From Octopus vulgaris (Eukaryota), in NCBI GenBank assembly GCA_951406725.2, contig OX597824.1, forward strand, positions 55,490,001-55,554,000: a stretch of 64,000 nucleotides of DNA. The letters run 5' to 3'. The notes under the pieces are model-generated. The model searched no databases. It saw nothing but the letters and a program-made list of their open reading frames with translations, and was not told where the DNA came from. The position numbers were made by a program, and so were the translations under genes. This document shows, in pieces, positions 11,601-64,000 of this stretch. The stretch's first letter is position 1. The number at the start of each line of letters is the position of its first letter.

Positions 11601-14548
11601 TTAAATCTATTTTATAATCAAAGCAACAAACATTGTGCTGTTTCTTTTAACAAGACAAAATTGCCTTATATTATCGTATAACTTTGGAGAATTTTCTTCA
11701 GTAAAGAATTTTCAAATATTTTGTGTCACATACTCTTTTAGCAAGAAATTCACCTCCTACAAGATACATTGTTGAATGTCCTTTCTTAGGAAAAATAAAA
11801 TAAACACAATAGGTGAGAATTTTTAACAGAATCTTTTTCAATGAATTTTTAAGATTTTAACCATTTCCATGAACTGCCTTTTGTTACATTAAATTTTCTT
11901 TTTTCTTTCATTTTAATTATCTTTTTCCCTCTCTCTCTTTTGGTGAGGCACTGAGCAGCTATACGCACACATACACACACGGCAGTAACTTCCACCTACC
12001 GAATTCAATCACAAAGCTCCGGTTGGCTCGGGGCTATAGTGGAAGACACCTACCCAAAGTGCCACGCAGTGGGACTTTTTGTTTCTTATTAATCATTTTT
12101 GTAAAAAAGACAGACGAACAGAAAATTAATGTTTATTTACAACCTTGTATGTTTCTTTAATTTCATTTCCAATTCAAAATGTTTAATTAAAATTTTTTCA
12201 TTTTAGTCTATTTTAATTCATATACTTTGTGTGCATGACACAACATATTTATTGTATTTATATGTGTATATCATAGGATCACTGCCCTCAAACCAAATTA
12301 ACAGAAAAGTTATTCGTTTATTCTTTTACTTGTTTCAGTCATCTGACTGCAGCCATACTGGAACACTGCCTTTAGTCGAACAAATCAGCCCCAGGACTTA
12401 TTCTTTGTAAGCCTAGTACTTATTCTATTGGTCTCTTTTGCAGAACTACTAAGTTACAGGGATATAAACACACTAACACCGGTTGTCACACAAGTATATA
12501 CATACATATATATGATGGACTTCTTCAGTTTCCATGTCCAAAGGCTTTGGTTGACCCAAGACTGTAGTAGAAGACACTTGCCCAAGGTGTCATGCAGTGA
12601 GACTGAACACAGAACCATGTGGTTGGGAAGCAAGATCCTTCCCACACAGCCACTCCTATGCCTATTTATTAAACAAGCACACACACATAAACAAATAACA
12701 ACAGATGGATTGTGATTCACTACAGCTGTTTCAGACATGTTTTCTTATATTGGTGAATAGAATTATTACATCATGCGAGAAAAAAAAACAAAAAAGCTGT
12801 TTTCTTCAGGTGAATATATACAAGAATTAAACATTTAAAACATTCCAATTTTGAAACAAAATTGCTAATTTTTGACTCCTCCAACCAAATTTTGGCCAGA
12901 GAGTGATTAAAATACTTTTTTTATATACTTATGATATTGACATAATATTGATATTTATATTGTACTAGCGTAAAAGCTGCACTCCATGCAGACTTTTAAG
13001 CTTGCACCTATGAAGGGATAATTGGGCCTCTAGTCCAAAACTAAAGAGAGCTAAATAATATGATCATAATATGTCTATAATAACTATATGCTGCAGCGGT
13101 GTTTGATCAGAGGTTAAGAAAGGATTAGAATTAATTTTGTAAGGATTACATTAATTTTGTAATGTAATCATTCTATTGTACCAGTACCAAGTTGAATTCC
13201 AGCTGTTGCCAATTTGTCCCAAAGTTCTTAACTCAACATAAAATTAACAAAGTGAATATTATTTATCTCTCCCTTGATCTCTGACAAATGCCAACCAAGA
13301 TGGCATGAACCAACCAAGCTTTACCTGCTAGAAATAGCAACCCAGATGCTTTTAAATCAGAACCCATGGCTGGATGTTCAAGAACCAAATGAAGGGCAGA
13401 TGTTCGATCCTGAGATCATTCTGATTCCAAAAAAGTATATGTCTATGTAGAACAAATGTAGACAGATACAGGGGTCCCAAACAGACAGAATTTTGATTTT
13501 ATTACTATAGATTATATATTATGTATTTTATATTCTACATCTTATACACAATCCCTATACTTTTTATATTTTCTGATATTTTTTATATTCTTATCACATT
13601 CTTAAAAGCTTTATCATATTTTATGATTTATCTTATACATATATCTCAAATTGTTGTTGGCCTTTTATCCTTTAAATCCTATACCCTTATTATGTCTTTA
13701 TTTTTTAATACTTTTATATTTTATGTTTTCTTATTTTTACTTTTTTTACTTTATTTATTTCCTTTGTTTTAAATTTGTTATTCTAGTTTATCTTGGTTTG
13801 TCCCTAAATTGTTAATCTCTTATGCTTATGTAAACGTGTATGCACATGTGGGGATGGATATAAATGTATTAGCAGTGTGTGTTTGTGTGTATGTAAATGT
13901 ATACATACGTGTGTGAATATACATGTGTTTAATGCTGTTATTGTGCACATAGATAAATACATGTATGCATACTTTTGCTGAGTACACAAATGAGTGCAGT
14001 TAGGTGGAAATGATGCATATGTGCTAGTACAAGAGTGTAGAGGTTATGAGTATGTAAGTATAGGTTGGTAATAATTATATATTTAAGTATATGCGAGCTG
14101 ATATAAATCTCTCTATATATAAAGCTGAAGTTGTCTGTGTAAGGCAGGTTTGGTAGCCTTCAACTAACACTATCTTCTCCGAGACCCTGCAACGCAAGTT
14201 GACCAAAATTGAGAGTATGATAGAAGAAGGCTTGCTCTTCCTTCCGTAGAAGAAAAAAATTCAAATCGGATCATGTTAACACCAAAAATTATTTACATCA
14301 AAAAGGTGCTTTTTTTCTATGAAAATCCCTATTTTTTACGATTTTTTTACTGCTGTGTTGCTTTTTTGGGGTGTATTTCAACTAGAAAAATGTTCACTTA
14401 AAGAGAATAACAAGCTACATAATGCAAAATCTTTACTTTTCAAAATTTCCAATTCTAAAGGGTCGAAACAAACCCAAGTAACACCGGGCGATACTGCTAG
14501 TATTATATATATGTGTGTTGCTTGTGTGTGTGTGTGTGTGTATATATT

Positions 14549-24611: not shown

Positions 24612-27600
24612 CATGCACTGTTTCCACTTCTCTTTGCATTCATAGATGACTTGATTCTAAGACAAGTCCCACAGGGTAAAAAATACAGAGATCAAGAATC
24701 AAGAACATGGTCACTGGACATTGCTTCATGATATTGTAGCATTAGTTGAGACTATGGAAGAACTGCAAGCTCTCAAGTGTACTACAGGGATATAAATTCT
24801 TTAGGAGTGTTTATAAAGAGAAAGATGCAGAAGCATACTTCAAAACAACAAAAACAAAAATTTAGAAGATCTCAACTGCTTTTGAGGAAAAGCATGATCA
24901 GCATTATCCAGACAAATAAGATATAGACAAGTGAAAAAGGTGTTGCTGACTACCGTACTAGATTTCTTTATGGTAATGAGTAATAAGTATTAAGAATTAA
25001 TAAGAAAAGAAAATATATTCTTTGACAGAAAATACTAAATCAAATTATAATCTCCAAAAAGAAAATCATTTAAACAGTGTGTGGTGTCTAAAAATATAAG
25101 GCAAACACACTCTGTGAGATCATCACCAACCAACATTCAGATCCATTAACCTTCTGTCTACCAATGGATCCAATGGTCCCATTTCAGCTTTTACGGTTGC
25201 TTTTACCTACTGTTTATATTATTTGATTTTGTTGATTTCTCGTGACTTATTTTTTCTTGACTATCTCTTATTTGTCAAATGGGAAATTTTCCATATGTTT
25301 ATAAAAGCTATAAAATTTCACTTTATACATTAATTACCGTTTGGGTCCATTGGACCCTTGAATTAAATTCAGACAATACTCTTGTAATTCTAAACAGAAT
25401 AAAATCAGCACCAAATATCATTTTCTTAGATATTTATCAAATATAAAATAGATAAAATTGTATACAATTCATTTGCTGAATTTTAGATAAAATAAGAAAA
25501 ATTATGAAAATATTGCTGCAAATTTGTGTGTTATTGCATCACCTTCAATCTGCTAGGTTATAGGGTGATGTAATATTTCTATGTGATGACACAATTCTTA
25601 CAACATATCGTATCAATATATGTGAGAGAGCAATATCTGCCTTTAGTCTGCTATCAAGTTTCATATAGTTCAGTTGGGCTTTCCATTATGCCTAGATATG
25701 AAAACTTGAGTGAAGACCAAATATCAAAAAGGTTATTGGAATTAGATGAAGAATGGGAAGAACATAGTAGTGATTCCTTCTATTGCTCTGAAGATGATGG
25801 TGAAAGTGATTGTATGCTGGACAGTTTAGGTTCTGTGTCATCAGATGATGAAGATACTCGATAACAATTATCTGCAAGCCACCAAATTATGAATGAGCAA
25901 TATGTTTCTAGAGACAGACAAGAAGTTTAGCATTCTAATCCTCTTATTCAAGCAACAGTAAGAACTTCATCTTGCAATATTGTGTACCAAGAAAGTGGAC
26001 CATCTTGTTTTGCTAAAAGGTCTTGTGATAGCATTGAAATATGTTTTACTATCTTTATGCGCCAGAATCTTCTTGAAGTAATTCTTGAAGGTCAGGTTGT
26101 TTACAAAGATAAATGGAAGGAAATTAATCACTCTGAAGTAAATAAATTTATTAGACTGATTATTCTTAGAAGTGTTTATAAATCTAAACATGAAAATGTC
26201 ACACAGTTATGAAGTCAAGAAGATGGCCGCCTAATATTCAACAAAATTATGAGCCGGGGAAGATTTCAACAGATTTTACAAGTATTGCATTTTGATGATG
26301 CTAGTGGAAAAAGAAAAAGAGAAGTGATGATAAACTGGAGCCATATGAGAAGTATTTGTGGAAATGTGGAATCAGAATTTGCAAGATAGATATGTTCCAA
26401 GTTCATACATGACAGCTGATGAACAATTAGTTTCATTCAGAGTGTGCTGCCCATTTCGGGTATATATTCCTTCAAAACCAGGGAAATATGGAATTAAAAT
26501 TTGGGCAATATGCGACAGTGAAACATCTTATGCCTGAAAAATGCAAATCTATACTGGAAAAAACCCAGTAAAATGGAGAGAGACAAATCAAGGTTCAAGA
26601 GTTGTTGAAGACCTAGTAAAAGAACTTGAAAATGCTGGTCGCAATATAACTTGTGATAATTTTTTTACAATTGTAGGATTGGCTCGAAGGCTACTTAGCA
26701 AGAAAACTACTTTAGTTGGAACAATTAGAAAGAACAGAGTTGAACTTCCAAGTGCTTTCACAAATGGAAAAGAAAGAGAAATCAACAGCACAATATTTGG
26801 ATTTCAAAAGGATTTTATGATCCTATCTTATTGTCCCAAGAAAAATTACGTAGTCAGCCTTCAATTGATTCAAAAAGTGCTGAAAAGAAACCTGAAGTTA
26901 TTACATGTTACAACAAAACAAAAGGAGTAGATACTCAAGATAAGATGGTAAGGACATGCACTTGCAAAAGAATGACTCGAAGATGGCCTATGGTTATATT
27001 CTACAACATGATTGACATAAGTGCAGTAAATGCTTTCATTGTTGCTAAACAGCTTCACTTGCAAAGTTTCAAGGATAAAAGAAGACAGTGCCTAATTCAG
27101 TTAGGAAAGGAATTTTCTGGAGTTAATGCTAAACAAGAACATCTAGTTCCGCTAACATTTCTCAACCAAACAAGAAAAGAAGATGATCTTCAATCTCATT
27201 TGAGATTCCTCAGCCAAAGAAAAAAGGAAGATGTTCTTTGTGTGGCCCTCAAAAAGACAGAAAAACTCATACTACTTATAAGAATTGTAATATCCATGTT
27301 TGCCAAGAACATTCCAATGTTGTCTGCATTCACTGCCATAAAGAGCAGTAATTCTGTATTTTTTTATTAAAATTTGTGAGAAATATTAATTCTTTATTTA
27401 CCTGATAGCATATATAATGTGGGTAAGAAATAGTGGTAGTTTGAATAAAATTTAATTAGAAGTAAAATATTGGGTCTGTTGGACCCAATATTTTACCAAG
27501 GGTTAATGAAGTCTTCCAGAGGGCAGATCTAAAGACAAAATGACTACAGTTATTGAACAGGTATTTTTCAACTCCAAAAAGTGATGAAATAATATAATTC

Positions 27601-34936: not shown

Positions 34937-37900
34937 TATATATATATGTACATCTATGTGTAAGTTTTCAATTATTGTTTTGTTATTAATTATGTATATT
35001 AGATCTGATAGATAGATCATCATGTATATTTGTATATGTGATGGTATGTATATGTATATATATATATATACATGTAGTCTAGCTTATACTTATGTAGATA
35101 TGTGTTTTTATATATTTAAATTAGGATATATAATTACCTGTGTGGTTATCTATACATGCAAATGTGTGTATATATATATATTCTATATGTACTTGTATGT
35201 GTTTGTATGTATATCCATATGTATATGTATATTGGTATATATTTACATTTGTAATTAAGTATAAAGTTTTGTAAAAAGTATGTTTGCATGTACATACCCA
35301 CATGAATACACTAGTTTTGGGATTCATATATGTATATGTGGATATATGTATGTATATTTATGTATATATATATGTACATGTATGTGTAAGTTTTCAATTA
35401 TTGTTTTATGTTATTAATTATGTATATTAGATCCTATAGATGGATCACCGTGTATATTTGTGTATGTGATGATATGTATATGTATGTTTGTATGTGTATA
35501 TATATATATATGTATTTGTATGTATGTGTGTGTGTATGTACATATATATATATATATATACATGTAGTCTAGCTTATACTTATGTAGATATGTGTTTTTT
35601 ATATATTTAAATTAGGATTTATAATTACATGTGTGGTTATCTGTACATACAAATGTGTACAGTTGTATATATTTTTATAAGTATGTGAATATATTTACTC
35701 TTGCATATATATGTGTATGTATGTAGATATACATATAAATATATGTATATGTATGTGTATGTGAATGTGTGTATATATATATATATGTGTGTATGGGTGG
35801 GGTAATATGTAAATATGTATCTGCATATGTATATTTGGAAGTAAATGTATGTATATAAGGGCTCTTACAGAATATATATACATATATGTATATATTTATA
35901 ATAATATGTGGGAGAATATATTATAATATATGTAGATACTAGTTTATGCATGTAGATGTATGGGTATATTTACATATGCATGTGCATATGTGTGTATGTG
36001 TAAATATGTGTTATGTGTGGTTATGTATGGATATGTGTGTTTGTCGAATAGTGGTACATACAGAGAATATAACGTATCTATATGAGTATGCTTGTGGATA
36101 TGGATATGTTTTCGTTTTGTTTACTTATTTAATAAAAATGTTGGGTATATATTTATTTAACTCATAAATAGTTTATTTTTTTATTTGTAGACCTAAACCT
36201 ATTTATAGATTTAATTTTGTAGGTGTTTGTATATGTTGATGTAGGAATGTATGTGTATGTATGTGTGTGTATGTATATATGTATGTTTGGATGTGTATAT
36301 GCGTGCCTGTATGTGGATTGTAGTTAGGACTGTGTATATGTGTACTGTGAGAGTATGTGGGTGCATGTATGTTTGTGTATATGTGAGTGGGTATATACGT
36401 ATATATCTGCATATTTCAACGGACGTATGTTTATGGTGTGTGACGTATGTATATTTGTTTACGTATGCATAGGTATGTGTGTGTGTATGCATACATTACG
36501 ATTGTATAAAATATAGTCAGAGTGTTATATGGTTTATTTTTGTAAATATCTATTCATGTCTTAACTTACAACTCTACTGATTATTGTAGGAACTCTCTGT
36601 TTATGTTTAATATCTAAAAGCTTAATTTAAAGATATATATTGTTAATACAAAAGACTAATACGATTTATTTACTTAATAATTAGACCTTCTATTATTTAA
36701 CAACAGATCAAGCGGAAAAAATTCAAATGGATTAGCCAATTAGAAATAGCTTATAATTTAAAATAATTGCTCCCTAACCCCCAATAATTTTGAAACTCTA
36801 AAATATTAATATAACATAAAGCATTGCTATTGTAGCTATCTATAATATATAACCAAAAGCTTTATTTTTTGAAAAAAGTTTGGTTGAATTATTCTACGAT
36901 ACTATATTATTTAGATGGACATAAATACAAATATAAGTATAATTTTAACTTCAACTTTGACGAAAAGAAAAAAATACTCATTTGGATATTACACTGGAAC
37001 TTGTTTGTATTAAGAGGATGTATATACTGAAAACCATAGTCTAACTATATGTTTTATATATTTATATGCATGTATATTTGTATACATATATATATGTATG
37101 CATATATATTTATTTGTTTGGATTGTTGATTGTTTATCTTGTATCGTATGTATCTGTTATAATATGTATGGTCTAGTGAAGATTACTATAAATATAATAA
37201 TATTGTTATTATTGATAAACATAATAATAATAATACTAATAATAGTGATATGTAGGTCAGTTGAGAAACAGAGTGCTTGTGGCCTGGTTTCATAGTTTGG
37301 AGCCAGGCAGACGGATAAAGCCTTTGTCCTGTCGGTTTCTGGAGAGATTAATGGGTTTGGAAGAGACATCTGACCCTTTTCCGGTCAGGGAAAGTTTAAG
37401 AAACCACCCTTTATAATGCGACGAACCGGGTTTGTTGGTCAGTTCTGCCTGAGACAGTGAGATGGCAACAGGTCAGTTCTGCCTGAGACAGTGAATTGGC
37501 AACAGGGCAGTTTGGCCAGAGACAGACAGTGAATGAGGAGCTGAGGGAGATTACGGTGTGAAGGCATTGGTTATTTGTAGTAGGAGCTTGTAACGGTATG
37601 TTTTGCTTGTTTTGATGTGAAATGTAAAAGAAACGAGATTGTGACGTAAATTGTAATCTGTTGTAAAGAACAAAATAAAGGATTACTGAAAAGAAAAAGA
37701 ATTGTGTCAAAAAAAAGAGAACTGTGAATTGAGGAAAAGAGGAAGAAAAAGGAGGAAGAAAAGAAAGAAGGAGAAAGACTTTAATGTTGAACTGTTTCGA
37801 ACTATATTGCATCAATTTGAACTATTTTGATTGTCTCTGGACTTGGTGTATCGTGCATGCCTTTGATTGTTTTCAAACAATGTGTTATGTTTAAATGCAT

Positions 37901-38221
37901 TGGTTGTTTTTCTTTTTGATTCTGTTGCATGTTATTTTCTTTAATGTATCTGATATGTTTCACATTGTATTTGATGTTGTAATAATTGTTATAAACTGTT
38001 CTTAAATGTAAGCAAATTACCTTCCACTGTCTCTCTATCTCTTCCTCCTCCTGTTGTTGTTGTTGTTATCGCCGGTCGCCGGTTCAAGTTCGCTGCCGTC
38101 CCCCCCACCACCGTTTTCTCTCTGTGTGGTGGATTCCCGTTCGACTGAGCTGGTCAATCGTCGTCGCTCGACTTAGTAGGGTCCCGGGTTCGAGTTTGAG
38201 CGACGGCAGGTTCGTAACAAC

Positions 38222-38675: not shown

Positions 38676-41374
38676 CCCCTGTCTCTCAGGACTCAAGACG
38701 AACAGTTTACTGAGTCTAAGGTTGCTGAGTCCGAGGAGCCTGCTGTGTGTGTGGTGGTTGCTGCGGTTGATGCTCCGTGTCTGGGTCCTTTTGTATCTGG
38801 ACCCCTGTCTCTCGGGACTCAGGAGGACTGTGTGGTGCCCACCGTGGAGAGGCTACGGGCATGGATGGACTGTCGGCCGAACTTGCGTTTTGTGAAGCCT
38901 TCGGTGCAGAAGCTGGTGACGAAGAGGACCAAGCCTGGTGATGGACTGTGGTGTGCTTCTGTCGGGTCGACAAAGCTTAGGGAGGGGGTAGTGATATGGA
39001 GGTCACTTGAGAAGCAGAGTGCTTGTGGCCTGGTTTTGTGGTTTGGAGCCAGGCAGATGGATAAAGCCTTTGTCCTGTCGGTTACTGGAGAGATTAATGT
39101 GTTTGGAAGAGACATCTGACTCTTTTCCGATCAGGGAAAGTTTAAGAAACCACTCTTTAAAATGCAACGAACCAGGTTTGTTGGTCAGTTCTGCCTGAGA
39201 CAGTGAGATGGCAACAGGTCAGTTCTGCCTGAGACAGTGAATTGGCAACAGGGCAGTTTGGCCAGAGACAGACAGTGAATGAGGAGCTGAGGGAGATTAC
39301 GGCGTGAAGGCATTGGCTATTTGTAGCAGGAGCTTGTAACGGTATGTTTTGTTTATGTTTTGATGTGAAATGTAAAAGAAACGAGATTGTGACGTAAATT
39401 GCAATCTGTTGTAAAGAACAAAAAAAAGAATTACTGAAAAGAAAAAGAATTGTGTCAAAAAAAGAGAACTGTGAATTGAGGAAAAGAGGAAGAAAAAGGA
39501 GAAGGAAAAAGAGGAAGAAAAGAAAGAAGGAGAAAGACTTTAATGTTGAACTGTTTCGAACTATATTGCATCAATTTGAACTGTTTTGATTGTCTCTGGA
39601 CTTGGTGTATCGTGCATGCCTTTGATTGTTTTCGAACGATGTGTTATGTTTAAATGCATTGGTTGTTTTTCTTTTTGATTCTGTTGCATGTTATTTTCTT
39701 TAATGTATCTGATATGTTTCACATTGTATTTGATGTTGTAATAATTGTTATAAACTGTTCTTAATTGTAAGCAAATTACCTTCCGCCGTCTCTCTATCTC
39801 TTCCTCCTCCTGTTGTTGTTATCTCCGGTCGCCGGTTCGAGTTCGCTGCCATCCCTCCACCACCATTTTCTCTCTGTGTGGTGGATTCCCGTTCGACTGA
39901 GCTGGTCAATCGTCATCGCTCGACTTAGTAGGGTTCCAGGTTCGAGTTTGAGCGACAGCAGGTTCGTAACAATATTATTAATAATAATTGATTATTATTT
40001 ATCTGGTCATAAACATAGACTTGTTTATATGTTCCAATATATGTATATATATGTATATGACGTATGGTATATCTACTTGGACCTATTGTTTAATTGTGTT
40101 TATTTATGTATTTTACACATGTAAAAGTACATACACTTTGCTTATGTATGTATATGTGTATATATGTATATGTCTATATGGATATTTGTTCATTTTTTAA
40201 ATATATATATTTATATATATTAAATAATACTTGTATCATGTTTAATGTATTAATATTGATATTTTTAAAGTTCCTTATAACATCTGACAAGGCCTATGGT
40301 TATATATATAAGTACACTATTTTTAAATGCCTACAACCTCATTATGTTGACAACTATAGGCAATAAAATAAAAATAACTACTTTTAACCATAAGCTGAAA
40401 CAGCTGTAAGAAGTGATTTTAAAGATTTCAATAATTCATATTATGATTTTTGTAATTTGTATTCTTATCTTATATATATTGAATTATAAGATATATATGT
40501 ATGATATTGCGGTTCTCATTTTGTTGAATGAATAAATAATCCAGCATTCTAATATCCGAAAGTTGGTGAACAAACTGAATTTGTTTCTCCATTTTCTTAT
40601 TTGTATTTACATACATACATACATACATATATATATATATACGCACACACACATACATATATATATATATAAATACATATATATACACACACATACATTG
40701 TAAATATGAGAGTAATAAATTAAAATAATTTATTACCAGTGGTTAGCAACCATAAATAAAATACATAAGACAACATATTTTTTTTTAAATATGAGTCTAT
40801 AAAATATCTTTATACACAGAGAGGAGTACTTTAATAACTTATCTTAATTTATTACCCTCATATTTACAATAGTAATTCTTATAATTCAGAGGCTATATAG
40901 GGCACAGTTTTAAATTTGTTTATTTAGTGTTGGAGTATATATTTACGTTTGCGCACTAAGTTTGGCTCCATAATGTATAAAGATGTTTTGCACAGGTATT
41001 TTTGGTATGTATTTGCAACTACAAAATTAATAATTAATAAGCGATCTCACTGATGATCTAGAGATTTCAAATTAGTTTATTTGGCAATCAATAGTAAAAC
41101 TTAAGTTCGGGATTACCTAATTCACTTTTTTGTTCATTCTTGTGTTATAAGAACGTGCTGCATAAATACTTTTTTGTAGTTTGGGTTTTAAGCGCTCATT
41201 CTAGCATGTAAGGCTCATGTCAAATGTCTCATCTGTGTATAAAAATATTTTATAGACTCATATATTTTATATATATGTATACACACATACATATATATAT
41301 ATATATATATGTATACACACATATACAAATATACACACACACATATATATATATATACATACATATATATATAA

Positions 41375-45792: not shown

Positions 45793-45851
45793 TCTTCTTG
45801 TCTTCTCTCGAACATAGTTAGATAGATAAATAAATAGACAGATTATCCAGC

Positions 45852-46951
45852 ATGTCCAGAGCATGGAGACCTGACGAACTAGATTTATTCGTACGAGCCT
45901 GGAAGTGCGCCGACGGAGATAGCCCTAGCAAGGTGATTGCAGCTGCGCTGGAGAACAAAGGCTACAAGAGGACAGCGGCTCAGATGGAGCGAAAGAGACG
46001 GGAATTCGTGCGCTCATATGCGCTTGTACGGTCGCACATTGGCGCACTTGATGCCATCTTTGAGAACGAGCGGGGCAAAGATGGCAAGAATGGAGACGAT
46101 GAAAGAAGTCACCCCCACCTGGTGGACGCCTGGGAGGAGGTTTTGAATGAGAAACCTGCCCGGGAAGTGAACCCAGGTGCAAGTTCTCCAACCGGCAGCA
46201 AGGGCCATGGAGACGGAGAACCCGGTGAAGAGGTAGAGGGACGAGGAAGAACTAAAAGAAGGACTGGAAGAGCTAAAGGAAAAGCTCAAGCAGGACCAAA
46301 GGGTGAAAAACCAGGAATAGAAGTGGAACCGCAAAAGATGGAAACAAACAGCGCACACGGGTGTGTAGGTTCTACCTGAGAGGTTCCTGCTGGCATGGAA
46401 AGGAAGGTGCAGGCTGCCGCTTTGCACATCGGGGACCCTGCCACAGAGACACGAGGCAGATGGACAAACCATCAACACAAAGAAAAGGGATGGACCACGC
46501 ACCACTTGCCCCAAAGCGGAGGTACGCAGATGTTGTGCGTGCCACAAACCGCCAACATGATGTTGTCGAAAGGGCAGCTGCTGAGCAACAATCTTTTTTG
46601 TGCATGGCACAAAAGATTGTACAGCAGCTGACCTGGCTTCATCAAACCCAAGCCCTGCAGGTGGGACTACCCACTATATACCAGACCACCACAGCAAACA
46701 GACCCAGGATGGACACCGCCGGCAACAACGTACACCTCACCTCGATGCTCCTACTGAACATCAGAGGACTGCAAACACTCAGTAACAGGACAAAATCCCG
46801 TTCCTGAGAGACTTTGTTGCATGCAATCAAGCCTTATGCATAGCACTTACGGAAACGCACCTGAAACCGGACATAGCAGATGCGGAGTTACACATACCAC
46901 AGTTATGCTGTACTACGGACCGACAGGAAAAGAAAGGAGTCATGGAGGTGT
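45852..46951 (+). mobile_element. 5' part of a CR1-group LINE: ORF1 (trihelix/Myb-like plus CCCH finger) and start of the APE endonuclease
   Basis: WRPDELDLFVRAW...GYKRTAAQMERK; CRFYLRGSCWHGKEGAGCRFAH; LLLNIRGL, IALTETHL, HGGV; frameshifts; ends at a (TA)n tract and the RTE insertion. Confidence 0.8.
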
Positions 46952-46978
46952 TATATATATATATATATATATATATAT

Positions 46979-49818
46979 CATCATCATCATCATCATCGTT
47001 TAACGTCCGTTCTCCATGCTAGCATGGGTTGGACGGTTCGACCGAGGATCTGGGAAGCCAGAAGGCTGCACCAGGCTCCAGTCTTATCTGGCAATGTTTC
47101 TACAGCTGGATGCCCTTCCTAACGCCAACCACTCCGTGAGTGTAGTGGGTGCTTTTTACGTGCCACCTGCACAGGTGCCAGGCGAGGCTGGCAACGGCCA
47201 CGGTCGGATTGGTGTATTTTATGTGCCACCGGCACGGAAGCCAGTCGAGGCGGTGCTGGCATCGGCCACGAGTCGGATAGTGCTTTTTACGTACCACCAG
47301 ACCAGGGATCCTGGCTGGTTCAATTCGATTTCGATTTCGCTTGCCCCAACATGTCTTCACAAGCAAAGGGGGTTGGCATGGGTGCCTGTCGTACGGTCGC
47401 ATTGGAGTATTTTACGTGCCACCGGCACGGAAGCCAGTCGCGGCGCTGGCATCGGCCACGAGTCGGATAGTGCTTTTTACGTACCACCAGACCAGGGATC
47501 CTGGCTGGTTCAATTCGGTTTCGATTTCGATTTCGCTTGCCCCAACATGTCTTCGCAAGCAAAGGGGGTTGGCATGGGTGCCTGTCGTCGGATGAGGTTC
47601 TATATCGACTTCGCTTGCCTCAACAGGTCTTTGTGTCCAAGGGAGGAAAGGCATTCATAAGTGGGCTGGGCTCACTTGTCCTGCCTGGTCTTCTCACGTA
47701 CAGAATATTTCCAAAGGTCTCGGTCGCTGGTCATTTCCTCAGTGAGGCCTAAAGTTCGAAGGTCGTGCTTCACCACCTCGTCCCAGGTTTTCCTGGGTCT
47801 ACCTCTTCCACGGGTTCCCTCAACTGCTAGGGATTGGCACTTTCTCACACACCTATCTTCATCCATTCTCGCCACATGACCATACCAGCGCAATCGTCTC
47901 TCTTGCACACCACAACTGATGCTTCTTAGGTACAACATTTCTCTCAAGGTGCTAACGCTCTGTCGAGTATGTACACTGACATTACACATCCATCGGAGCA
48001 TACTGGCTTCATTCCTCACGAGCTTACGCATGTCCTCAGCAGTCACGGCCCATGTTTCACTGCCATGTAGCATGGCTGTTCGTACACACGCATCATACAG
48101 TCTGCCTTTTACTCTGAGCGAGAGGCCTTTAGTCACCAGCAGAGGTAAGAGCTCCCTAAACTTTGCCCAGGCTATTCTTATTCTAGCAGTTACACTTTCA
48201 GCGCACCCACCCCCACTACTGACTTGGTCACCTAGATAACGGAAGCTATCAACTACTTCTAGTTTTTCCCCCTGGAAAGTGACGGAAGTTGTTTTCTGCA
48301 GATTTTCGGAGGTTAATGCTCCCGAGCATCTGCCACATACAAAAACTATCTTCCCAGTTAGCCTACCTTTGACATTGCTGCACCTCTTATGTGTCCATAG
48401 CTTACACTGGGTACATCTTATAGAGTTTCTACCTACACCTTTTCTACAGATCGAGCAGGGCCATCTTCCTGAAGACATTTGTGGATTGTCTACCTTCCTA
48501 CTTATTAGTACTTTGGTTTTAGCTAGGTTGACTCTAAGGCCCCTCGATTCTAAACCCTCCTTCCACACCTGGAACTTCTCCTCCAGTTCTGATAGTGACT
48601 CAGCAATAAGAGCAAGGTCGTCAGCGTAGAGGAGCTCCCAGGGACAACCTGTCTTGAATTCCTCCGTAATTGCCTGGAGGACTATGATAAATAGGAGGGG
48701 GCTGAGTACTGAACCCTGGTGGACCCCAACCTCTACTTTGAATTCTTCTGTGTACATGTTGCCAACCCTAACCTTACTTACGGCATCTCTGTACATGGCT
48801 TGCACAGTCCTCACCAGCCATTCATCTATCCCTAGTTTCCTCATTGACCACCAGATAAGGGATCGGGGGACCCTATCAAAAGCTTTCTCAATGTCAACGA
48901 AAGCCAGGTACAGGGGCATATCTTTGGCTAGGTATTTCTCCTGCAGCTGCCTTACCAGGAATATAGCATCAGTGGTACTTTTCCCTGGCACGAACCCAAA
49001 CTGCATCTCATCTAAACTAACTCTCTCTCTAATTAGTTGGGCTATGACACTCTCCGTAACCTTCATTACTTGATCCTACAGCTTGATACCTCTGTAATTA
49101 TTTGTATCTAGGGCATCACCTTTACCTTTGTAGCAGTTGACTAGTATGCTGCTGCACCAGTCATTGGGTATGACTCCTTCGTGTATCACCTGGTTGACTA
49201 TACGGGTGACTAGGTTATAGCCGACACTGCCAGATATTTTGAGCATCTCTGCAGTAATTCCTGATGGGCCTGGGGCTTTCCCTGTCTTCATGCTTCTAAT
49301 TGCCTTAGCTACCACGGAACTATCAACTCGGATAGCTGGTCCCTCTGTTGGGTCAACATTCGGCAGACTCACTTTATCCAAATAATTTTCTTTATTCAGC
49401 AACCTTTCATAGTGGCATCTCGAAACCTCTCTCTTTGCATCCTCATTTAGCGCTAGTGAACCATCATCCATGCAAACACACTTCTCTCCTACCACATATC
49501 GATTCTCTCTCACACACTGTCTTGCAACATCCACTTCCCCTCCGGCTAAATAAACCTGTCTCCTAGCTTCCCTTCTGGCTGTCTGATACAATTCCCTGCT
49601 ACCACCATTCTTCCAGTCCTTTCAAGCCTGTCTCTTTTGTCTAATAGTCCTGTCAACCACAGTGTTCCACCACCACGTTACTCTGGGTCGAGATGGTACT
49701 TTGCTCCATCCACAGATCTGGTCAGTGGCTGTCAGCAGATTGTTCAGCGTAGAAATCTCCAGTTGTCTTCCACATGAAGTGAAGCTATATCCCTTCTATT
49801 TCGTCAAAGGCTCCGAGT
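46979..49818 (-). mobile_element. Young RTE-clade LINE (ORF2 RT region plus 3' UTR), cut by an assembly gap
   Basis: KAPGPSG, YRGIKL, QFGFVPGKST, DIEKAFD, GVHQGSVLSP, YADD, RGRGRPRKTW; ORFs 49076-49591 and 47672-49066 are in frame, separated by one TAG. Confidence 0.96.
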
Positions 49819-50635: not shown

Positions 50636-51014
50636 CATGGCTTCTGATCCTAACTGATTGGAAGTGTTATCATGTACATTGTTTTGTCTTGGTATAAAAG
50701 ATGGGCTACAGCAAATATTCTGCTCAATACCACAGAGTTACTTGTCAGTTGTTTGACCATAACCAGTTGAGCATGTCCCTTAGTAGCTGACGATATGTGC
50801 ATCTCTGACCACGAGCAGAAGTAGTTGGGGGAACATCATAGCCATGTGTCGAGAGGGATTCTTTGGGGTTTGAATAATTCACCTTTGGAAACATGGGTGG
50901 TTCTTTCAACATCCTTAAACAACCCTTATTCAGGGACCTTTTGAGCAGGATGGGCTACTCGACCAGAAGCTGGTAAACCAAGCCCGGTTTTCTTCAGAAA
51001 TATCCACTTTTTAC

Positions 51015-51397
51015 TCTTTCACATGTTCCAGTCTTTTGACTGCAGCCATGCTGGAGCACCACCTTTAGTCGAACAAATCGACCCCAGGACTTATTATTTT
51101 GTAAGCCTAATACTTATTCTATTGGTTTCTTTTGCTGAACTGCTAAATTTCGGAGACATAGACAAACCAACATCGGTTGTCAAGTTATGGTGAGGGGACA
51201 AACGCAGACACAAACACACACACACACACATACACAACAGGGGTCTTTCAGTTTCCTTCCACCAAATCCACCCACAAGGCATTGGTCGGCCCGGGGCCAC
51301 AGCAGATGACACCTGCCCAAGATGCCACGCAGCGGGACCGAACCCAGAACCATGTGGCTGCCAAACAAGCCACCCACCACACAGCCACTCCTACGCC
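51015..51397 (-). mobile_element. tRNA-derived SINE
   Basis: Homologous to 10322-10712. Confidence 0.8.
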
Positions 51398-51407
51398 TAT
51401 ATATATA

Positions 51408-52199: not shown

Positions 52200-55066
52200 T
52201 CCTTAAATCTACACTAATATGTGAATCCACCTCTGATAAGTGGCACTTTGTCAACAAAGGATTTTGATGCCGCTGCCCACATCTGTGTCTCCTGTCGTGA
52301 GGTAGGTTCATCTGGGACCCCCGACAAGAAGAGATCCAGATTAGTTTTAAAGAAACCCACATCCACACCATGCAAGTCTCTCAGGCATTTAGGGAGGATG
52401 TTAAAGAGCTGTGGTCCTCTGAAAGCCAAGCTGTTGCAGTATCTGGTCCTGTATTTTGGTGGCAATGTTGGAATTTTGGCACCATGCAGTGGTGCCTCGT
52501 TCTGCGGTTGGGGTCACTTTGAATGCCAAAGTTTGGGACAAGACTCTCCAGGATTTTCCAGATGTATGTCACTGCACATCTCTCCTGCCTTCGCTCCAGG
52601 GAGAAGTGTTTTAATACATGCAGTCTTTCCCAGTAGTTGATATGTTGCATTGAGACGATCTTCTTAGTGTAGCTTCTTTGAATTGCTTCGAGTTCTGCTG
52701 TTAGCTTTATACTGTGTGGTGACCATAGTTGGGAGTAGTAGTCCAAGCGGCCGAGGATGAAAGTTTTCCAAAGGACCACCAGTGTCTCCTTCTCTCTTGT
52801 TCTGCAGCTAGCTGTCTGCATTTTATCACTAAATTAGTAATATTCACTTGGAAAGATGCATCATTGCTCATGTCAATGCCCAGGTCACACACTGATTTTG
52901 ACTCATTAATTACAATTCTTCCTGGGCCAGTGTATCCAGTCTGCATGTCGTTTACCTTTGTGTGCCAGTAGTTCAGGGCCTGGAACTTACCTGCATTAAA
53001 TTGCATGTTGTTGTCCTCAGACCACCTGTATATTGTATCTAACTCCTGTTGCAGATGTGCAATATTTCCAGAGTTTTGTATTGAGTGGGAGACTTTTGTG
53101 TCATCTGCATAGCTAGCAAGGGTGGCCATCGTAACAACTGAGGGCATATCTGAAAGGGCCACTATGAACAGCAGTGGCCCCAAGACAGTGCCCTGCGGGA
53201 CACCACTTCTAATTTGTGTTTCCTTGGAGGTGGCTCCATTGCTTACAACTGCCTTTTTTCTATCTTTTAGGAAGTTGTGCAGCCACTCTCCAAGTTTTCC
53301 GCCTATGCCGAGACCACGCAGGTTTTTGACATATCATACCATGGTCGACCCTATCAAAGGCCATTGCAAAGTCGAGACACACCACATCCACACCTGAGCC
53401 ATTTAGTAGCTGTTTCAACACCCAGTCATAGTGTTGCAGGAGCTGTGTTAGGCAGCTTCTACCTGGTCGAAATTCATGCTGGGTCTCAGGCAGCAAGTCA
53501 TTTTCTTCAAGGAACATGATTAGTTTCTTACGGACTATTTGTTCCATGACTTTGCTGATGTGTGAGGTCAGAGAGATAGGCCTATAATTTTTAGCATCTG
53601 CTCTGCTTCCTCACTTATGGATAGGGCATATTACCCCCTCCTTCAATTTGACTGGGAGCTTACCACTTGCAAGAAAGCTCTGCAAAAGAAGCTGTAGCGG
53701 TTTTGCAAGGGCTTGTTTGCACTATTTGAGAAGGATCGCTGGAAATCCATCAGGTCCAGCAGCTGAGTTTGTGTCAATCTCATCTATGGCCAGTGTGATA
53801 TCATCATCTTCAATGTTGATGTACTCAATTTTTGCCTCTTTGGCCGCAGGTAAAGTGGCAAAGAATTCTTCTGGGTTGTTTACTTGCCTGTGTCCTAGAG
53901 GTGTAGTGAACACACTTTGGAACTGTTCGTTCAATATTTCACTTATCCTCGTGGGATTTCCTGTAAGGGAGCCATCTTTTTGGAAGAGAGGTCCTATTCT
54001 CTGGTGCACTGTGGCTGTCTCTTTGGCAAACTTCAAGATAGCTTTAAGGTTTGACTTTATATTTTCTATTACCCAAGCTTCTTTATCTGCTCTCTCCTTT
54101 TCATTAGACTGATGCAGACTTTCAAGCCGAGTCTTCTCACCACTTTTGGTGTGTTTGCTCAAGCGGTTCGCAATCCTTGTCCGTCGTCTCATAAGAATCT
54201 TCCTTTCTCTAGGGATCCTATTTTTGTTTATGTGTGTGCTGGCCTTGCACACTGGGACATATTTATCACATATGGCTTGTATTATGGACATGAAACGCTT
54301 GTTTCATGTCAATGTTTGGTGTGGAGAGACTTTTAGGCCAATCCTGTTTGAGGATCTCTTTCTCAATCAATTTCCAATTTGCTTTATGAAGTTTAAGTTG
54401 GAGAGATTGTGGATGCTTCGTATAGGCTTGTGTCTGCGGGGGCTTTTGGTCCATACATAGACAGCTTTATTATGTTGTGATCCAAGATCATTATCAGCAT
54501 CACTTTAACATTATGGATAATATCCATATTGTTTGTGAAGCAGAGATCCAGTATATTATCTGCCCTTGTTGGTTGCAGCACTATTTGCTCCATGAAAGAG
54601 GCATTTGTGAGATGGAGCAGGGACTCTGTCTGTGCCTGCTGATGGTGTGTCATCCCTGGAAGCATCTGCCCCCCAGACCATTCCACATTGGGGAAGTTAA
54701 AGTCACCCATGAAGATTACACTGTTGTGTTGTTCCAGGTTGGTGAGAACTTCTCCTATTTTTGTTAGGCAGTCTTCAAATATGCCTGTGTGATTTGGGAT
54801 ATCCGGTGGGCGATATGTAGTACATATGACGATATTCAGTTGCCTTATGTGTACAATTTGAGTGTCACACAATGAGTTTGAATATGACAACAGGACCTGG
54901 AGTATGAGGTCATCTCGGATGTACACTACAACTCCACCATGACTCCTTCCTTTTCTATGTGAGCGTATGACAACATATTGCAGTGTGTTTATTTCTGCAT
55001 CCCCTATATCAGGTCCAAGATGCGTTTCTATGAGTGCCATGCATATAGCTTGATTGCATGGTTGCA
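52200..55066 (-). mobile_element. CR1-group LINE ORF2 (APE endonuclease plus RT), disrupted
   Basis: ETHL, YRPP, MGDFNFP, NILDLCFTN, AAGPDG, DFAMAFD, GVPQGTVLGPLLF, YADDTK, SLERR; stops and frameshifts. Confidence 0.93.
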
Positions 55067-56364: not shown

Positions 56365-56445
<81 letters not shown>

Positions 56446-56579
56446 TACATATATTTATTTGTTCATGTAGGTTTATTTGCATGAATGCATGTGGTGGTCT
56501 TTAGTATTATGCTGTTTTTCTGTATGTACATATTTGTAATTTTTATATTCTGGTACTTGTTCATTATTTACCTTTATAA

Positions 56580-57540
56580 ATCCTTAAAAATGTTTCAGCC
56601 CGAAGGCTGCGGCCATGCTGGGGCACCACTGCCGAATGAGCTACACCAATATGTGAATCCACCCCGATACGTGGCACCCGGTCAACAAGGGAGCCCAATG
56701 CCGCCACCCGCATCCACCTCCCCCGCCGCGAGGCAGGCTCACCCCGGGACCCCCGACAAGAAGAGATCCAGTTTAGCCTCAAAGAAACCCACATCCACAC
56801 CATGTAAGTCTCTCAGGCAACCCTGAATGCCAAAGTCTGGGACAAGACCCTCCAGATGCACATCACAGCCCATCTCTCCCGCCCTCGCTCCAGGGAGAAG
56901 AGTCCCAACACTCAGTCTTTCCCAGCAGCCGACATGTGGCACCGAGACGATCCCCCCTATGTAGCTTCCTCGAATTGCCCCGAGCCCCGCTGTCAGTTCC
57001 ACACTGTGCGGCGACCACAGCTGGGAGCAGCAGCCCAAGCGGCCGAGGACGAAAGTTTTCCACAGGACCATCAGTGTCTCACCCCCACCACCGCTCCGAA
57101 AGCCCGGAGAACCCATCCAGCCAGCCGTCCGCACTCCATCACCAGATCATCACCGCCCATGCCAACGCCCAGATCACGCACCAACCCCGACTGAGGGACC
57201 ACAAGTCCACCCGGGCCAGTGCATCCAGCCCGCATGTCGCCCACCCCTGCGCACCGGCAGCGCAGGGCCTGGAACCCACCTGCATCAAACTGCATGCTGC
57301 CATCCTAAGCCCACTCGCACACTGTATCCAACTCCCGCTGCAGACGCGCAACACCTCCAGGGTCCTGCACTGCGTGGGAGACCCCTGTGCCATCCGTACA
57401 GCCAGCAAGGGCGGCCATCCCAGCAACTGAGGGCATGTCCAAAAGGGCCACCACGAACAGCAGTGGCCACAAGACAGCGCCCTGCGGAACACCGCCTGCC
57501 ACCTGTGCCATCCTGGAGGTGGCTCCATCGTCCACAACCA
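56580..57540 (-). mobile_element. CR1-group LINE 3' fragment with A-to-G hypermutation
   Basis: Collinear with 52214-53250 (with deletions) but dense T>C on the plus strand; YADD has become CTDG. Confidence 0.9.
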
Positions 57541-57851
57541 TCTGCTTATGTTTATTAAGTATTCAATATGGGTTCTCAGTATATGGTTATATGAGTCAAC
57601 ATACTAAACATTGTGATCACTAATAGATTTACATATGTGTGGATGCATGTGTATATGTATATTTATATTTTATTTTTATATTTATTTATTTATATTTTTC
57701 GCATTTTCATGTATGTCTATTTGTGTACATGCATGTGATAGTTTTAAGTATTATTTATGTTATCTTCTTGTATATTAGATATTATATATGGACTTCAGTA
57801 AACTTTTGTATAGGTGATGTTTGTACTGGTCTGTTAGTATGTAGGATTATA

Positions 57852-60649: not shown

Positions 60650-63600
60650 TCAACGCTAACCTTGGACTTAACTTAACTGGGATAGTAGCAACTTAACTTA
60701 GTTGCTACTATCTTTTTTTTTTTAAACTAAATTTATTTGATTTTGCGGATATATACTTTAATATCCATACAATAGGAATGTAAATATTGTGAAATCTAAT
60801 ATACATATAACGGGCTTATATTTTGTGGAATGGACCTTACCCGGATTTGTAATTCGGACTGAATGTTCTGGATACTTGGATATAGCCCTTGCGTGTGGGT
60901 GGATGCGCTAAGTACTATTTGGAAACGAACATGATTATTCATTCGAACAGCGAACGAAATGCAAACAACTTTGGATGCAAGCTGTGCTATAGAACCTTTG
61001 CAACTGAGAGAGGCTTGAAGATACATCAGGGAAAGACTTGTGAGAAGAGGACAGAGCAGTGTGGATCGTCAGATCGTAAAACACGTGGCAAGTCATCCCC
61101 GGACTCAAACCACAGCGGATCGATAAATGCTACAGCAGAGAACTCTTCACGTGATGAAACTACAAGTCATGAAACTGGTGCATCGGATAATACTCAGAGG
61201 AAACCGAGGGTTTTGTGGCCTGCTGCTAATGAGAAAGTGAAATATAAAGAGTTTGAAAACATGGTTTGTGGGGCTCTTTATAAAATGACAGGCTCTACAG
61301 TGGAGAAACTGGGAAAATTATCAAGCTCAATATACGATATAGGAAAAGATTTATTTGGAATAAAAGAGAATATCCGACTAGAGAAAGGAAAGTGTGGACC
61401 AAGCAGGAGGATCAGAAAAATGCAGCAGTTGAGGAAGGAAAAGTCCGACTTAAGAAAGCGATGGAGATGTGCTGCACTAGATGAGAAACCTGGCCTTGCG
61501 TTGCTGTATAACGATTTGAAGAGGAAATGTCGTTATGTGCAACGACATATCCGCCGATATGAGCGTCGAAAAGAAAGTAAAAGGACTCGGGGGCAGTTTC
61601 TGAAGGACCCGTACGGGTTTACTAAGAAGCTGTTCACTGAACCGAAGAGTGGTACTTTATCGTGCACTAAAGAAGAATTGGATGCTCATATCAAGGAAAC
61701 CTACAGCGATCCGCACCGTAACCAGCCGCTGCCACCTCTACATGGGTTAAATCATCTCTCAGGACCTGATATCGAATTCCAGATTAGGGACATCAGGGAG
61801 AGAGAGGTGAATGACTTCGTAAGAAAAGCTAGAGCAAAGAGTGCCCCAGGAGGTGATGGCGTCTCATGTAAAGTCTACAAGTACTGCAATCGTCTGCGAA
61901 AGAAGCTCTTCGTCCTAATCCGACAACTGTGACGCGAGGAGACTATAGTAGAGGATTGGTGTAAGGCAGAAGGTATATACCTGCCGAAAGAGGCCAATGC
62001 AAAGACCATAAAACAGTTTAGGCCGATATCCTTATTGAATGTGAAAGGCAAGATCTTTATGGGAATTCTGTCGAGGAGAACAGTGGCATATTTACAGAGT
62101 AACGGATATGTTGATGAATCTGTTCAAAAGGCCGGAATCCCCGGGATCCCTGGATGCGTTGAACACTGTTTTTCGATTTGGAAAGCGATCCAGGATGCCA
62201 AACAGAACAAGAAAAGTCTGAACGTGGTATGGCTCGACCTAGCTAACGCGTATGGTTCAGTGCCACACAAATTACTAATAACAGCCATGGACCACTTCCA
62301 CATTCCTGACAAAGTGATCAAAATAATGAGGATGTACTATGACAGTTTCGAAATGAGGTTTACAACTGGAAATTTTACAACAAATTGGCACCGATTGGAG
62401 GTTGGCATTGCTGCTGGCTGTACAATATCTGTCACGTGGTTTATCTTAGTGATGGAGTTGATTTTGAAAGGTGTAGATTTTTCGGAACAAATCGCCCATG
62501 TACAATCGCCTAAGAAAGCCTTCATGGATGACGTGACACTTCTAGCTACAGATAAACAAATCATGCAGAATGCCCTTTTGAGATTAGACGAACTTGTAAG
62601 GTGGTCAAGGATGCGATTTAGAGCAAAAAAGTCGCGTAGTCTGACATTTGTTAAGGGAGTGCAGAAAGAATTTAAATTTCGAATATCTGAAGAAAGCATT
62701 CCAACAGTCGTGGGATTGAAATTATGAAACAGGCCGAGGCTGGGTTATCAGCGATTGATGTTTCGAAGTTACCAGGTAAATATAAAATTTGGTGCTTGCA
62801 GTTCGGCTTGTACCCGCGACTTGCGTGGCCACTTTTAATATACGAAGTAGCATTGTCACGAGTTGAAAAGGTTGAACAAAAATGTAATGTGTTCATTAGA
62901 AAGTGGCTAGGTCTACCTCGTATGTTGAACAGCTCAGCTCTTTATCGTAAAAGAGGTTCGTTGCAGTTACCAATAGCATCAATAGTCGAAAAATATAAGT
63001 TGGGGAAGATACGGACGGTTATGATGCTGAGAGAATCGAAGGATATGGAAATCAGGCGTAACCCACCAGAGGTGAAAACAGCCAGGAAGTGGAAAGCAGA
63101 AGCAGAAACTGACAACATCTTGTCTTCTCTTATACACAGAGATATGGTGGGAGCAACGCAGAACCATCGGAAAGGATTTGGTTTTGGCGCAGATCAGTTC
63201 AGACCGTTTGCAAGCATGATGCCGTGTGAACGCAGATCTGTTGTTAGCAACAGCGTCAAAACAAGAGAAGCAGAGAGAAGAGAGCTTCATTTGATCCGAT
63301 GTGTTCATCAAGGTCAGATGACGAGATGGGAAGAACATGTTGTTGAGAGGAAGATAAGTTGGGATGAGATGTGGAAGTGGACGACATCTCGGCTGAGTTT
63401 CCTGATTCGTTCATCTTATGATGTTTTGCCATCACCTACGAATATAGTAAGATGGAACGTCTTAGAGAATGACATCTGCAAATGTGGAAAGATCGGTACA
63501 CTAAAACATATTCTTTCCAACTGTTCATTAGCATTGAACAGGTACACATGGAGGCACAACTTGGTCCTTAAGGTTATCTTCAATGCTATAAAGAACCAAA

Positions 63601-64000
63601 TTCATCTCAACAACACTGAGGAAAAATCGTTAAAAGTACCATCAAGAGAGTTCATTACCTTCGTGCGACTAGGTCAGCAGATCCGTTTCAAGAAGAAGAC
63701 CAAGAAACTTCCTGAGAAAAATGAAAAGTGGAACGGCTATTGGGAGGTAACTGCAGATTTACCTGGGTGCCAGGTTTTCTTTCCCATCCCAGTTTCGAAA
63801 AAACCCAGATATTTTGATGTGGTGTGAAAGAAAGAAAGTTGTAAATATAGTCGAGCTAACGGTTCCCCACGAAGATAATATGGACGCCACTCGAGCTCGA
63901 AAATTAAACCGTTATGAAAACCTCCTCGAGGAATGTGAAGACGCAGGCTGGAAAGCGGAACATTTTCCTATCGAAGTCGGATGTAGAGGGTTTGTAGGAC
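60650..64000 (+). mobile_element. HERO/NeSL-type RLE non-LTR retrotransposon, nearly full length, runs off the window end
   Basis: N-terminal Zn finger CKLC..GLKIHQGKTC, SAPGGDG, WLDLANAYGSVPH, GCTIS, AFMDD, CKCGKIGTLKHILSNC, RHN, KKPDI..VELTVP..IEVGCRGF; in-frame TGA at 61930 and frameshifts near 62710 and 63800. Confidence 0.92.

Follow-up and report, generated by a model that had tools for sequence, protein, structure and literature searches.

The locus described here raises the question of how a single copy of a LINE family in Octopus vulgaris came to read G at so many positions where its relatives read A, on one strand only, and at which stage of the element's life cycle, RNA or DNA, these changes were made. 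For brevity, we call the changes edits and the copy that carries them the hyperedited copy.

The LINE copy and its substitution spectrum

The hyperedited copy lies in a 64-kb stretch of DNA (the window, analysed at its full length) on contig C11 of the genome searched (2.8 Gb, 227 contigs). It occupies positions 56579-57545 on the minus strand and corresponds to the 3ʹ kilobase of a non-LTR element, 5ʹ-truncated and with the 3ʹ tail intact, comprising the 3ʹ part of the reverse transcriptase (RT), the C-terminal region, the 3ʹ end and the tail. The preliminary description had located the copy at 56580-57540; it was indeed found there, and its boundaries had to be corrected, the left edge being ambiguous by a few TATA bases common to the copy and the host repeat. 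The C-rich island noted in that description corresponds to 40% C and 62.5% G+C at 56631-57545.

Copies of the family encode an APE endonuclease followed by an RT, as non-LTR retrotransposons (LINEs) do. The neighbouring longer copy of the same family and orientation (52209-55060, minus strand) gave matches to PF14529 (E 1e-9) and PF00078 (E 7e-13) in frames broken by frameshifts, and another copy (L006) matched PF00078 with E 7e-32, whereas in the two frames of the hyperedited copy the Pfam matches were gone. The 5ʹ ends of the family are variable, with 60 copies starting all along a 2.6-kb reference, the 3ʹ end is constant, and a short repeated tail was observed in copies L008 and L111. The C-terminal motif and the absence of a target-site duplication agree with CR1/L2-type elements, CR1 being the putative clade named in the preliminary description.

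No host gene was identified in the 10 of 81 window frames scanned, which matched either transposon domains or, weakly, a zinc finger, or had no match. At 45834-46955, weak zinc-finger frames (PF16131) precede a sequence that is 73% similar to the neighbouring LINE in its 5ʹ part, and this stretch may represent the first reading frame of an older, related element that other insertions have split. Further mobile elements were recognised by Pfam at 47672-49621, 60886-63827, 5608-6039 and 26538-27370 (two RT-bearing, one mariner-type and one piggyBac/IS4-type transposase fragment), and the segments 37243-38220 and 38989-39972 form a direct duplication of ~1 kb with 94% identity.

An excess of one-stranded A>G relative to the neighbour had been claimed, and our pairwise comparison on the plus strand agreed with it, with 149 T>C, 9 C>T, 11 A>G and 14 G>A (ragged ends included). 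The 39-nt example that had been given (53091-53129 versus 57380-57418) proved exact, eight of its nine differences being sense A>G. The sense strand was also compared with the per-column majority of 30 other family stretches, obtained from 28 search loci (one giving two arms) plus the neighbour; L001, which is the hyperedited copy itself, and L020, which is the same DNA as L008, were left out. Against this majority 148 of 282 A columns (52.5%) read G, in a tract at 56633-57539 (minus strand), as compared with an A>G rate of 0.3-5.6% in the 30 other stretches. Counted by strand, the spectrum was again one-sided (A>G 148 vs T>C 0); C>T amounted to 11 and transversions to 16, and APOBEC-type clusters of sense G>A were not found in the copy (G>A 5 vs A>G 148). 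The family background itself shows more sense A>G (313/42715) than sense T>C (155/30767), in counts for which ancestry is shared and base mutability differs.

Of the 148 G alleles, 102 were absent from all 30 copies and 30 more were present in one. Among 149 codons compared, 61 residues were changed and 13 changes were silent; the commonest residue changes were T>A (8), I>V (8), Y>C (4), K>G (4), N>G (4) and N>D (3), all among those listed beforehand, and the catalytic YADD of the family RT reads CTDG (57389-57400, minus strand), as had been stated. With most of its G alleles private and its catalytic motif destroyed, the hyperedited copy is the derived one, in line with the earlier claim. Private changes other than A>G were found at 19 of 962 positions (2.0%), against a median of 0.4% and a maximum of 2.1% in 66 other copies, and since this load is near the top of the range, the copy is probably among the older ones of the family.

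ADARs prefer the neighbour 5ʹ of the target adenosine in the order U>A>C>G. At 276 scorable sites of the hyperedited copy, the edited fraction was 0.80 after U (32/40), 0.69 after A (58/84), 0.45 after C (40/88) and 0.28 after G (18/64), a highly significant effect of the 5ʹ neighbour (chi-square P 2e-8). The depletion of 5ʹ G, which had been proposed as a check of the ADAR reading, was thus evident (18/64 vs 130/212, P 3.5e-6), whereas ordinary A>G changes in the family lacked it (G 0.0083, A 0.0086, U 0.0072, C 0.0052). According to PMC5625713 and PMC2873906, 5ʹ G depletion is the pan-metazoan ADAR motif. The 3ʹ neighbour had a weaker effect (P 0.048), with edited fractions of 0.64 for G (42/66), 0.57 for C (39/69), 0.54 for A (43/80) and 0.39 for U (24/61). 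In invertebrate hyper-editing a downstream A, not G, is preferred, as summarised in PMC5625713; this preference was not clear in the hyperedited copy, and the measure used in that report may be normalised differently.

Limits of the tract, DNA support and later decay

The edits extend from 57539 to 56633 and thus reach within 6 nt of the 5ʹ junction. The copy sits inside an AT-rich host repeat, the two halves of which (56440-56578 on the left and 57546-57850 on the right) are unedited. In the left half, T>C was found at 0 of 51 positions relative to the repeat copy L032 and at 2-5 of 40-75 relative to five other copies; in the right half, it was found at 3 of 148 relative to L032. The tract therefore ends sharply with the element. 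In four other copies of this repeat, only a single base separates the left half from the right, and therefore the insertion was clean, without target-site duplication.

At the other end of the element, the last ~85 nt with the tail (56577-56661, minus strand) were largely spared: 3 of 19 A were edited, compared with 143 of 250 in the body and ~11 expected from context (Fisher P 5e-4, for a cut-off picked after inspection; four cut-offs gave P 5e-4 to 8e-3). Either the partner strand was short of the tail, or the tail was covered by protein, or only RNAs with a usable tail were primed. Folding of the 3ʹ end was no better than that of shuffled sequences (z 0.4). As a separate observation, contig depth over the last 50 nt of the family 3ʹ end (56577-56629) was, in four runs, ~3x that of the body. 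An unrelated short repeat in L036 terminates in a similar tail, and together these observations suggest a SINE that shares its tail with this LINE family.

Independent DNA was sought in 8 of 24 runs, all as assembled contigs, from five studies with three organism labels; one of them (X1) may be the assembly's own sample. Locus-specific contigs covered 57035-57637 (2 differences) and 56440-56602 (0) in X1, 57051-57637 in X3 (0) and X4 (2), 57060-57637 in X5 (2), 57134-57637 in X6 (3), 57251-57545 in X7 (1), 57384-57637 in X8 (1) and 57078-57327 in X9 (1). The 5ʹ 60% of the copy, with 88 of the 148 edits and the 5ʹ junction, is thus present in the DNA of several samples with 0-3 differences, and the contigs over 57035-57637 include allelic variants. 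The proposed check in independent DNA thereby confirmed the changes over 57035-57637 and left the 3ʹ ~400 bp uncovered. For ~56640-57035 none of the eight runs gave a locus-specific contig, a gap that speaks neither for nor against the changes there, so 60 of the 148 edits (56633-57034) are taken from the assembly only; removal by the assembler of short low-depth paths between high-copy words would explain the gap.

The remaining substitutions of the copy bear on the relative timing of the changes. Of the 11 C>T, eight directly precede an edited G, i.e. they are located at CpGs made by the edits. C>T affected 8 of 39 edit-made CpGs compared with 2 of 159 other non-CpG C (P 4e-5), and 1 of 24 CpGs of the family. 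One of these positions, 57441 (minus strand), is polymorphic, with TG in the assembly, X1 and X3, and CG still in X4, X5, X6, X7 and X8; at 57250 and 57454 an edit-made CpG was lost on the other strand in some runs. Because C>T is concentrated at edit-made CpGs and the CG allele persists in five runs, the A>G changes came first and the CpG decay later. This decay occurred at the DNA level and continues to segregate. If the other strand decayed equally, ~8 edits would be hidden, which would put the original level of editing near 55%. CpG decay explains only part of the raised load of private changes other than A>G.

We also found three deletions in the hyperedited copy, of 129 bp (junction at 56819-56820, minus strand), of 10 bp near 56850 and of 24 bp near 57147, which were present in no full-length alignment row. 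The 10-bp and 129-bp deletions are located at short repeats whose length would increase through A>G changes, which suggests that editing preceded deletion.

Frequency of A>G clusters in the family and the search for a source

The family comprises ~2000 copies, as estimated from a 29-letter motif near the 3ʹ end (one site; 1996 matches at no more than one mismatch). Whether other genomic copies share the G alleles was checked by DNA search with motifs in which the edited letters were forced, and none were found. Five such motifs of sense polarity were used: at two sites only the hyperedited copy was matched, at a third there was no match in the genome, and the two further motifs found a patch in the neighbour and the copy L111; the one motif of antisense polarity had no match in the genome. 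A sister copy carrying the G alleles was likewise not found, the best other match being 72-76% identical among the 40 of 2735 candidates scored in the DNA search.

A screen for clusters covered 146 kb in 105 alignments with identities of 85% or more, taken from 89 loci after seven older, distant alignments had been dropped; 60 of the loci had been picked by position, from the first 100 motif matches listed on contig C1. Ten segments of the screen contained four or more changes belonging to a single class: sense A>G in the two highest-ranking segments and G>A or C>T in the remaining eight, with no case of T>C. The 60 position-picked C1 loci contained no A>G cluster. The most significant patch, at 53350-53394 (minus strand) in the neighbour, consists of eight sense A>G within 45 nt (raw P 5e-10), each of them preceded by A or U; it is private, the motif of the patch having its sole genome match there, and it alters a conserved RT motif. 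In a natural copy the region of this patch folded with z -1.8 (9 of 200 shuffles as stable) and formed no long hairpin. The patch and the full tract are 3 kb apart despite the rarity of edited copies in the family. The second patch, in L015:1501-2166 (contig C14 near 23.40 Mb), comprises seven sense A>G within 30 nt (raw P 3e-6, which becomes marginal once corrected), with 12 sense A>G and 1 T>C over the whole stretch of a rearranged copy that had been chosen by its likeness to the hyperedited one.

The third patch lies in L111:1186-1535 (contig C7 near 124.85 Mb), a 350-bp 5ʹ-truncated copy in which 6 of 20 A in the first 53 nt read G, three of the six being demanded by the search motif, and none of the remaining 73 A does. 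The cluster thus lies directly at the truncation point, and RT may have stopped inside an edited or paired stretch. Small G>A clusters were also noticed in L014 (6 in 51 nt) and L073 (5 in 45 nt). Outside the family, two repeat pairs of the window differ in one direction, towards the copy at 51.0-51.4 kb: 10565-10711 versus 51244-51390 with T>C 15 and C>T 0, and 12317-12669 versus 51010-51404 with T>C 27 and C>T 5. This copy is possibly another edited patch, in a different repeat.

In the family, the scan for other A>G-skewed LINE copies thus added three short candidate patches to the one full tract, all of sense-strand A>G, and no second full tract. The preliminary description had gone further and had seen in the locus a retrotransposon-inactivating system. 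Full hyperediting is not a general defence, since only one such copy was found among ~2000, and this part of the claim was not sustained by the 60 position-picked loci either, none of which had a cluster.

No source copy was found, the nearest copies being 4.6-5% different outside the A>G sites, and a motif of the private changes of the hyperedited copy matched only the copy itself in the genome. Two candidates were rejected: the neighbour, which differs by 7.5% outside A>G sites and lacks ~50 nt of the 3ʹ end, and the fold-back L008, the two arms of which (5.6% and 6.3% different) are no closer than other copies. Inverted family copies, from which a double-stranded partner could arise, were not found within the 64-kb window. 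Inverted pairs do exist in the genome (L008, L051, L084): L008:1125-3496 (contig C16 near 9.50 Mb) has two copies head to head with no spacer and with tails outward, in a 1.1-kb fold-back; an inverted pair is located at 5.51 Mb of C1; and L084:77-9299 (C1 near 70.52 Mb) is a 4-kb inverted duplication of 97.9% identity, with a long family copy per arm. Three opposite-strand family pairs within 7 kb were noticed among the first 100 matches listed on C1, apparently more than even spacing would suggest. As none of the inverted pairs could be tied to the hyperedited copy, we can only infer the double-stranded substrate. Exons with the adenosine-deaminase domain (PF02137), of ADAR or ADAT, were found on four contigs of the genome.

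Origin of the changes and relation to known systems

Taking these results together, we consider it highly probable that the hyperedited copy is a DNA copy of an ADAR-hyperedited LINE RNA that was reverse-transcribed into the germline. This reading, already put forward in the preliminary description, agrees with the one-stranded spectrum, the depletion of 5ʹ G, the lack of a sister copy and the DNA support over 57035-57637; the wider defence role attached to it finds no support. Against the reading count the failure to find a partner strand or source copy, the 3ʹ-neighbour order with its missing preference for a downstream A, the raised load of private changes other than A>G, the 60 edits at 56633-57034 outside locus-specific contigs, and the human L1 RNA reported as unedited by ADAR1 in cell culture (PMC5224506).

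It is very unlikely, in our opinion, that an existing copy was overwritten by cDNA of its own edited transcript, a route in which ADAR would still be the source. Such gene conversion would also yield sense A>G limited to the paired part, and the internal clusters in the neighbour and L015 fit patchy conversion; however, there is no inverted partner within the window, the edits reach the 5ʹ junction and end there, and the spared tail, expected if priming needs the tail, is not required by conversion.

Less likely again is the action of ADAR or a similar deaminase on the sense DNA strand of an RNA:DNA hybrid, during or after insertion. In model substrates, ADARs can act on the DNA strand of such hybrids (Zheng 2017, as cited in PMC12925331), but this activity was at A-C mismatches or with mutant enzymes. 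Moreover, the DNA strand of the retrotransposition hybrid is the antisense cDNA, and deamination of the cDNA strand is excluded, because its polarity would give sense T>C, of which none was counted; half of all A over 900 bp would also have to escape repair.

A burst of RT misincorporation under unbalanced nucleotide pools, with no deaminase involved, would account for changes that are one-off, one-stranded and confined to the element, and for the raised load of other private changes, yet we regard it as scarcely probable. Pool imbalance favours wobble errors (template G>A or U>C) and not C opposite A. Neither 5ʹ G depletion nor a spared tail is predicted. An assembly or RNA-polishing artefact, for which the lack of a locus-specific contig over 56640-57035 in eight runs could be cited, is extremely improbable, as five studies provide DNA-type contigs that match 57035-57637 (88 edits and the flank junction) with 0-3 differences and include allelic variants. 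Finally, membership in a G-rich subfamily, or ordinary divergence under a mutational bias, could explain up to 12 subfamily alleles common to the hyperedited copy and other copies, and can be practically dismissed in view of the 102 of 148 G alleles in none of 30 copies, the forced-G motifs matching only the hyperedited copy, the best other match at 72-76% identity (40 of 2735 candidates scored), and mostly non-synonymous changes that destroy the catalytic motif.

If the copy derives from an ADAR-edited RNA, the events could be envisaged as follows. A sense family RNA would have formed at least 900 bp of dsRNA with an antisense transcript or an inverted copy, and ADAR would have converted ~55% of the adenosines of that RNA to inosine. 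Because the edited RNA encodes a dead RT, its spared 3ʹ end would still have been recognised by an ORF2 protein from another copy, or by one translated before editing. Target-primed reverse transcription would have read inosine as G, halting after ~1.1 kb, and the new CpGs would have been methylated and would have been decaying since. The same route, in a milder form, likely produced the short clusters in the three other copies. More tentatively, and with less than even probability, there may be a standing germline route by which ADAR and LINE RT turn RNA edits into DNA, from 45-nt patches (perhaps 1-2% of copies) to kilobase tracts, with dead RNAs carried in trans via an unedited tail and a second hit delivered by CpG methylation and decay.

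Several known systems resemble this case in part. In avian retroviruses ~50% A>G conversion has been reported (as cited in PMC12925331), so that, as here, about half of A became G in a retro-transcribed RNA and was recorded in DNA. Those, however, are exogenous LTR viruses in which U3, or an inverted repeat carried by the molecule itself, is edited, whereas the octopus copy is non-LTR, inherited, common to several samples and without a partner arm within the copy. APOBEC editing of LTR retrotransposons is fixed in vertebrate genomes (PMC4866542, PMC2873906) and likewise leaves a one-stranded, context-biased germline cluster and a ruined frame after a deaminase burst in one retrotransposition cycle. 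That process gives sense G>A via deamination of C in the cDNA of vertebrate LTR elements, and 19 invertebrates were negative in the APOBEC screen (PMC4866542, PMC2873906); here we observe A>G in a LINE of an invertebrate, presumably introduced at the RNA stage.

According to PMC5625713, octopus has the strongest A-to-I hyper-editing of repeat-derived dsRNA, and this gives dense A>G clusters in repeats with depleted 5ʹ G, as in our copy; it is described from RNA reads against an unchanged genome, whereas here the changes are in DNA and the downstream-base preference differs weakly. A defence role of cephalopod repeat editing was suggested and described as unexplored in PMC9068888. Retroprocessing in plant mitochondria, by which edited RNA is reverse-transcribed back into the genome (PMC4987113, PMC2989974), shares the principle; as outlined there, it concerns site-specific C-to-U editing and the replacement of organelle genes, in contrast to non-specific A-to-I hyper-editing of a nuclear mobile element. 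Human ADAR1 also acts on the LINE life cycle, reportedly restricting LINE-1 in cell culture by a route that does not depend on editing, and more than 2.5 kb of L1 RNA contained no edits (PMC5224506), whereas the octopus copy implies rare editing of the retrotransposing RNA. Our search of the open literature, with subscription papers mostly outside its scope, found no report of ADAR-hyperedited LINE copies fixed in a genome; supplements of the APOBEC screens, which tabulate other mismatches, may bear on this point.

The low frequency of such copies argues for a rare by-product and not a main defence. RNA editing is normally not inherited; here, the A-to-I events of one molecule appear to have entered nuclear DNA in one step. 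This implies that retrotransposing LINE RNA is encountered by ADAR in germ cells, unlike the human L1 result in cell culture, and the link suggested between ADAR and transposons in cephalopods becomes testable from genome sequence alone. The spared tail offers a handle on how the element is primed, and the order of editing and CpG decay a handle on germline methylation. If the standing route proposed above is true, it would also reach SINEs and host mRNAs, and its scars would form a dated record of germline ADAR specificity.
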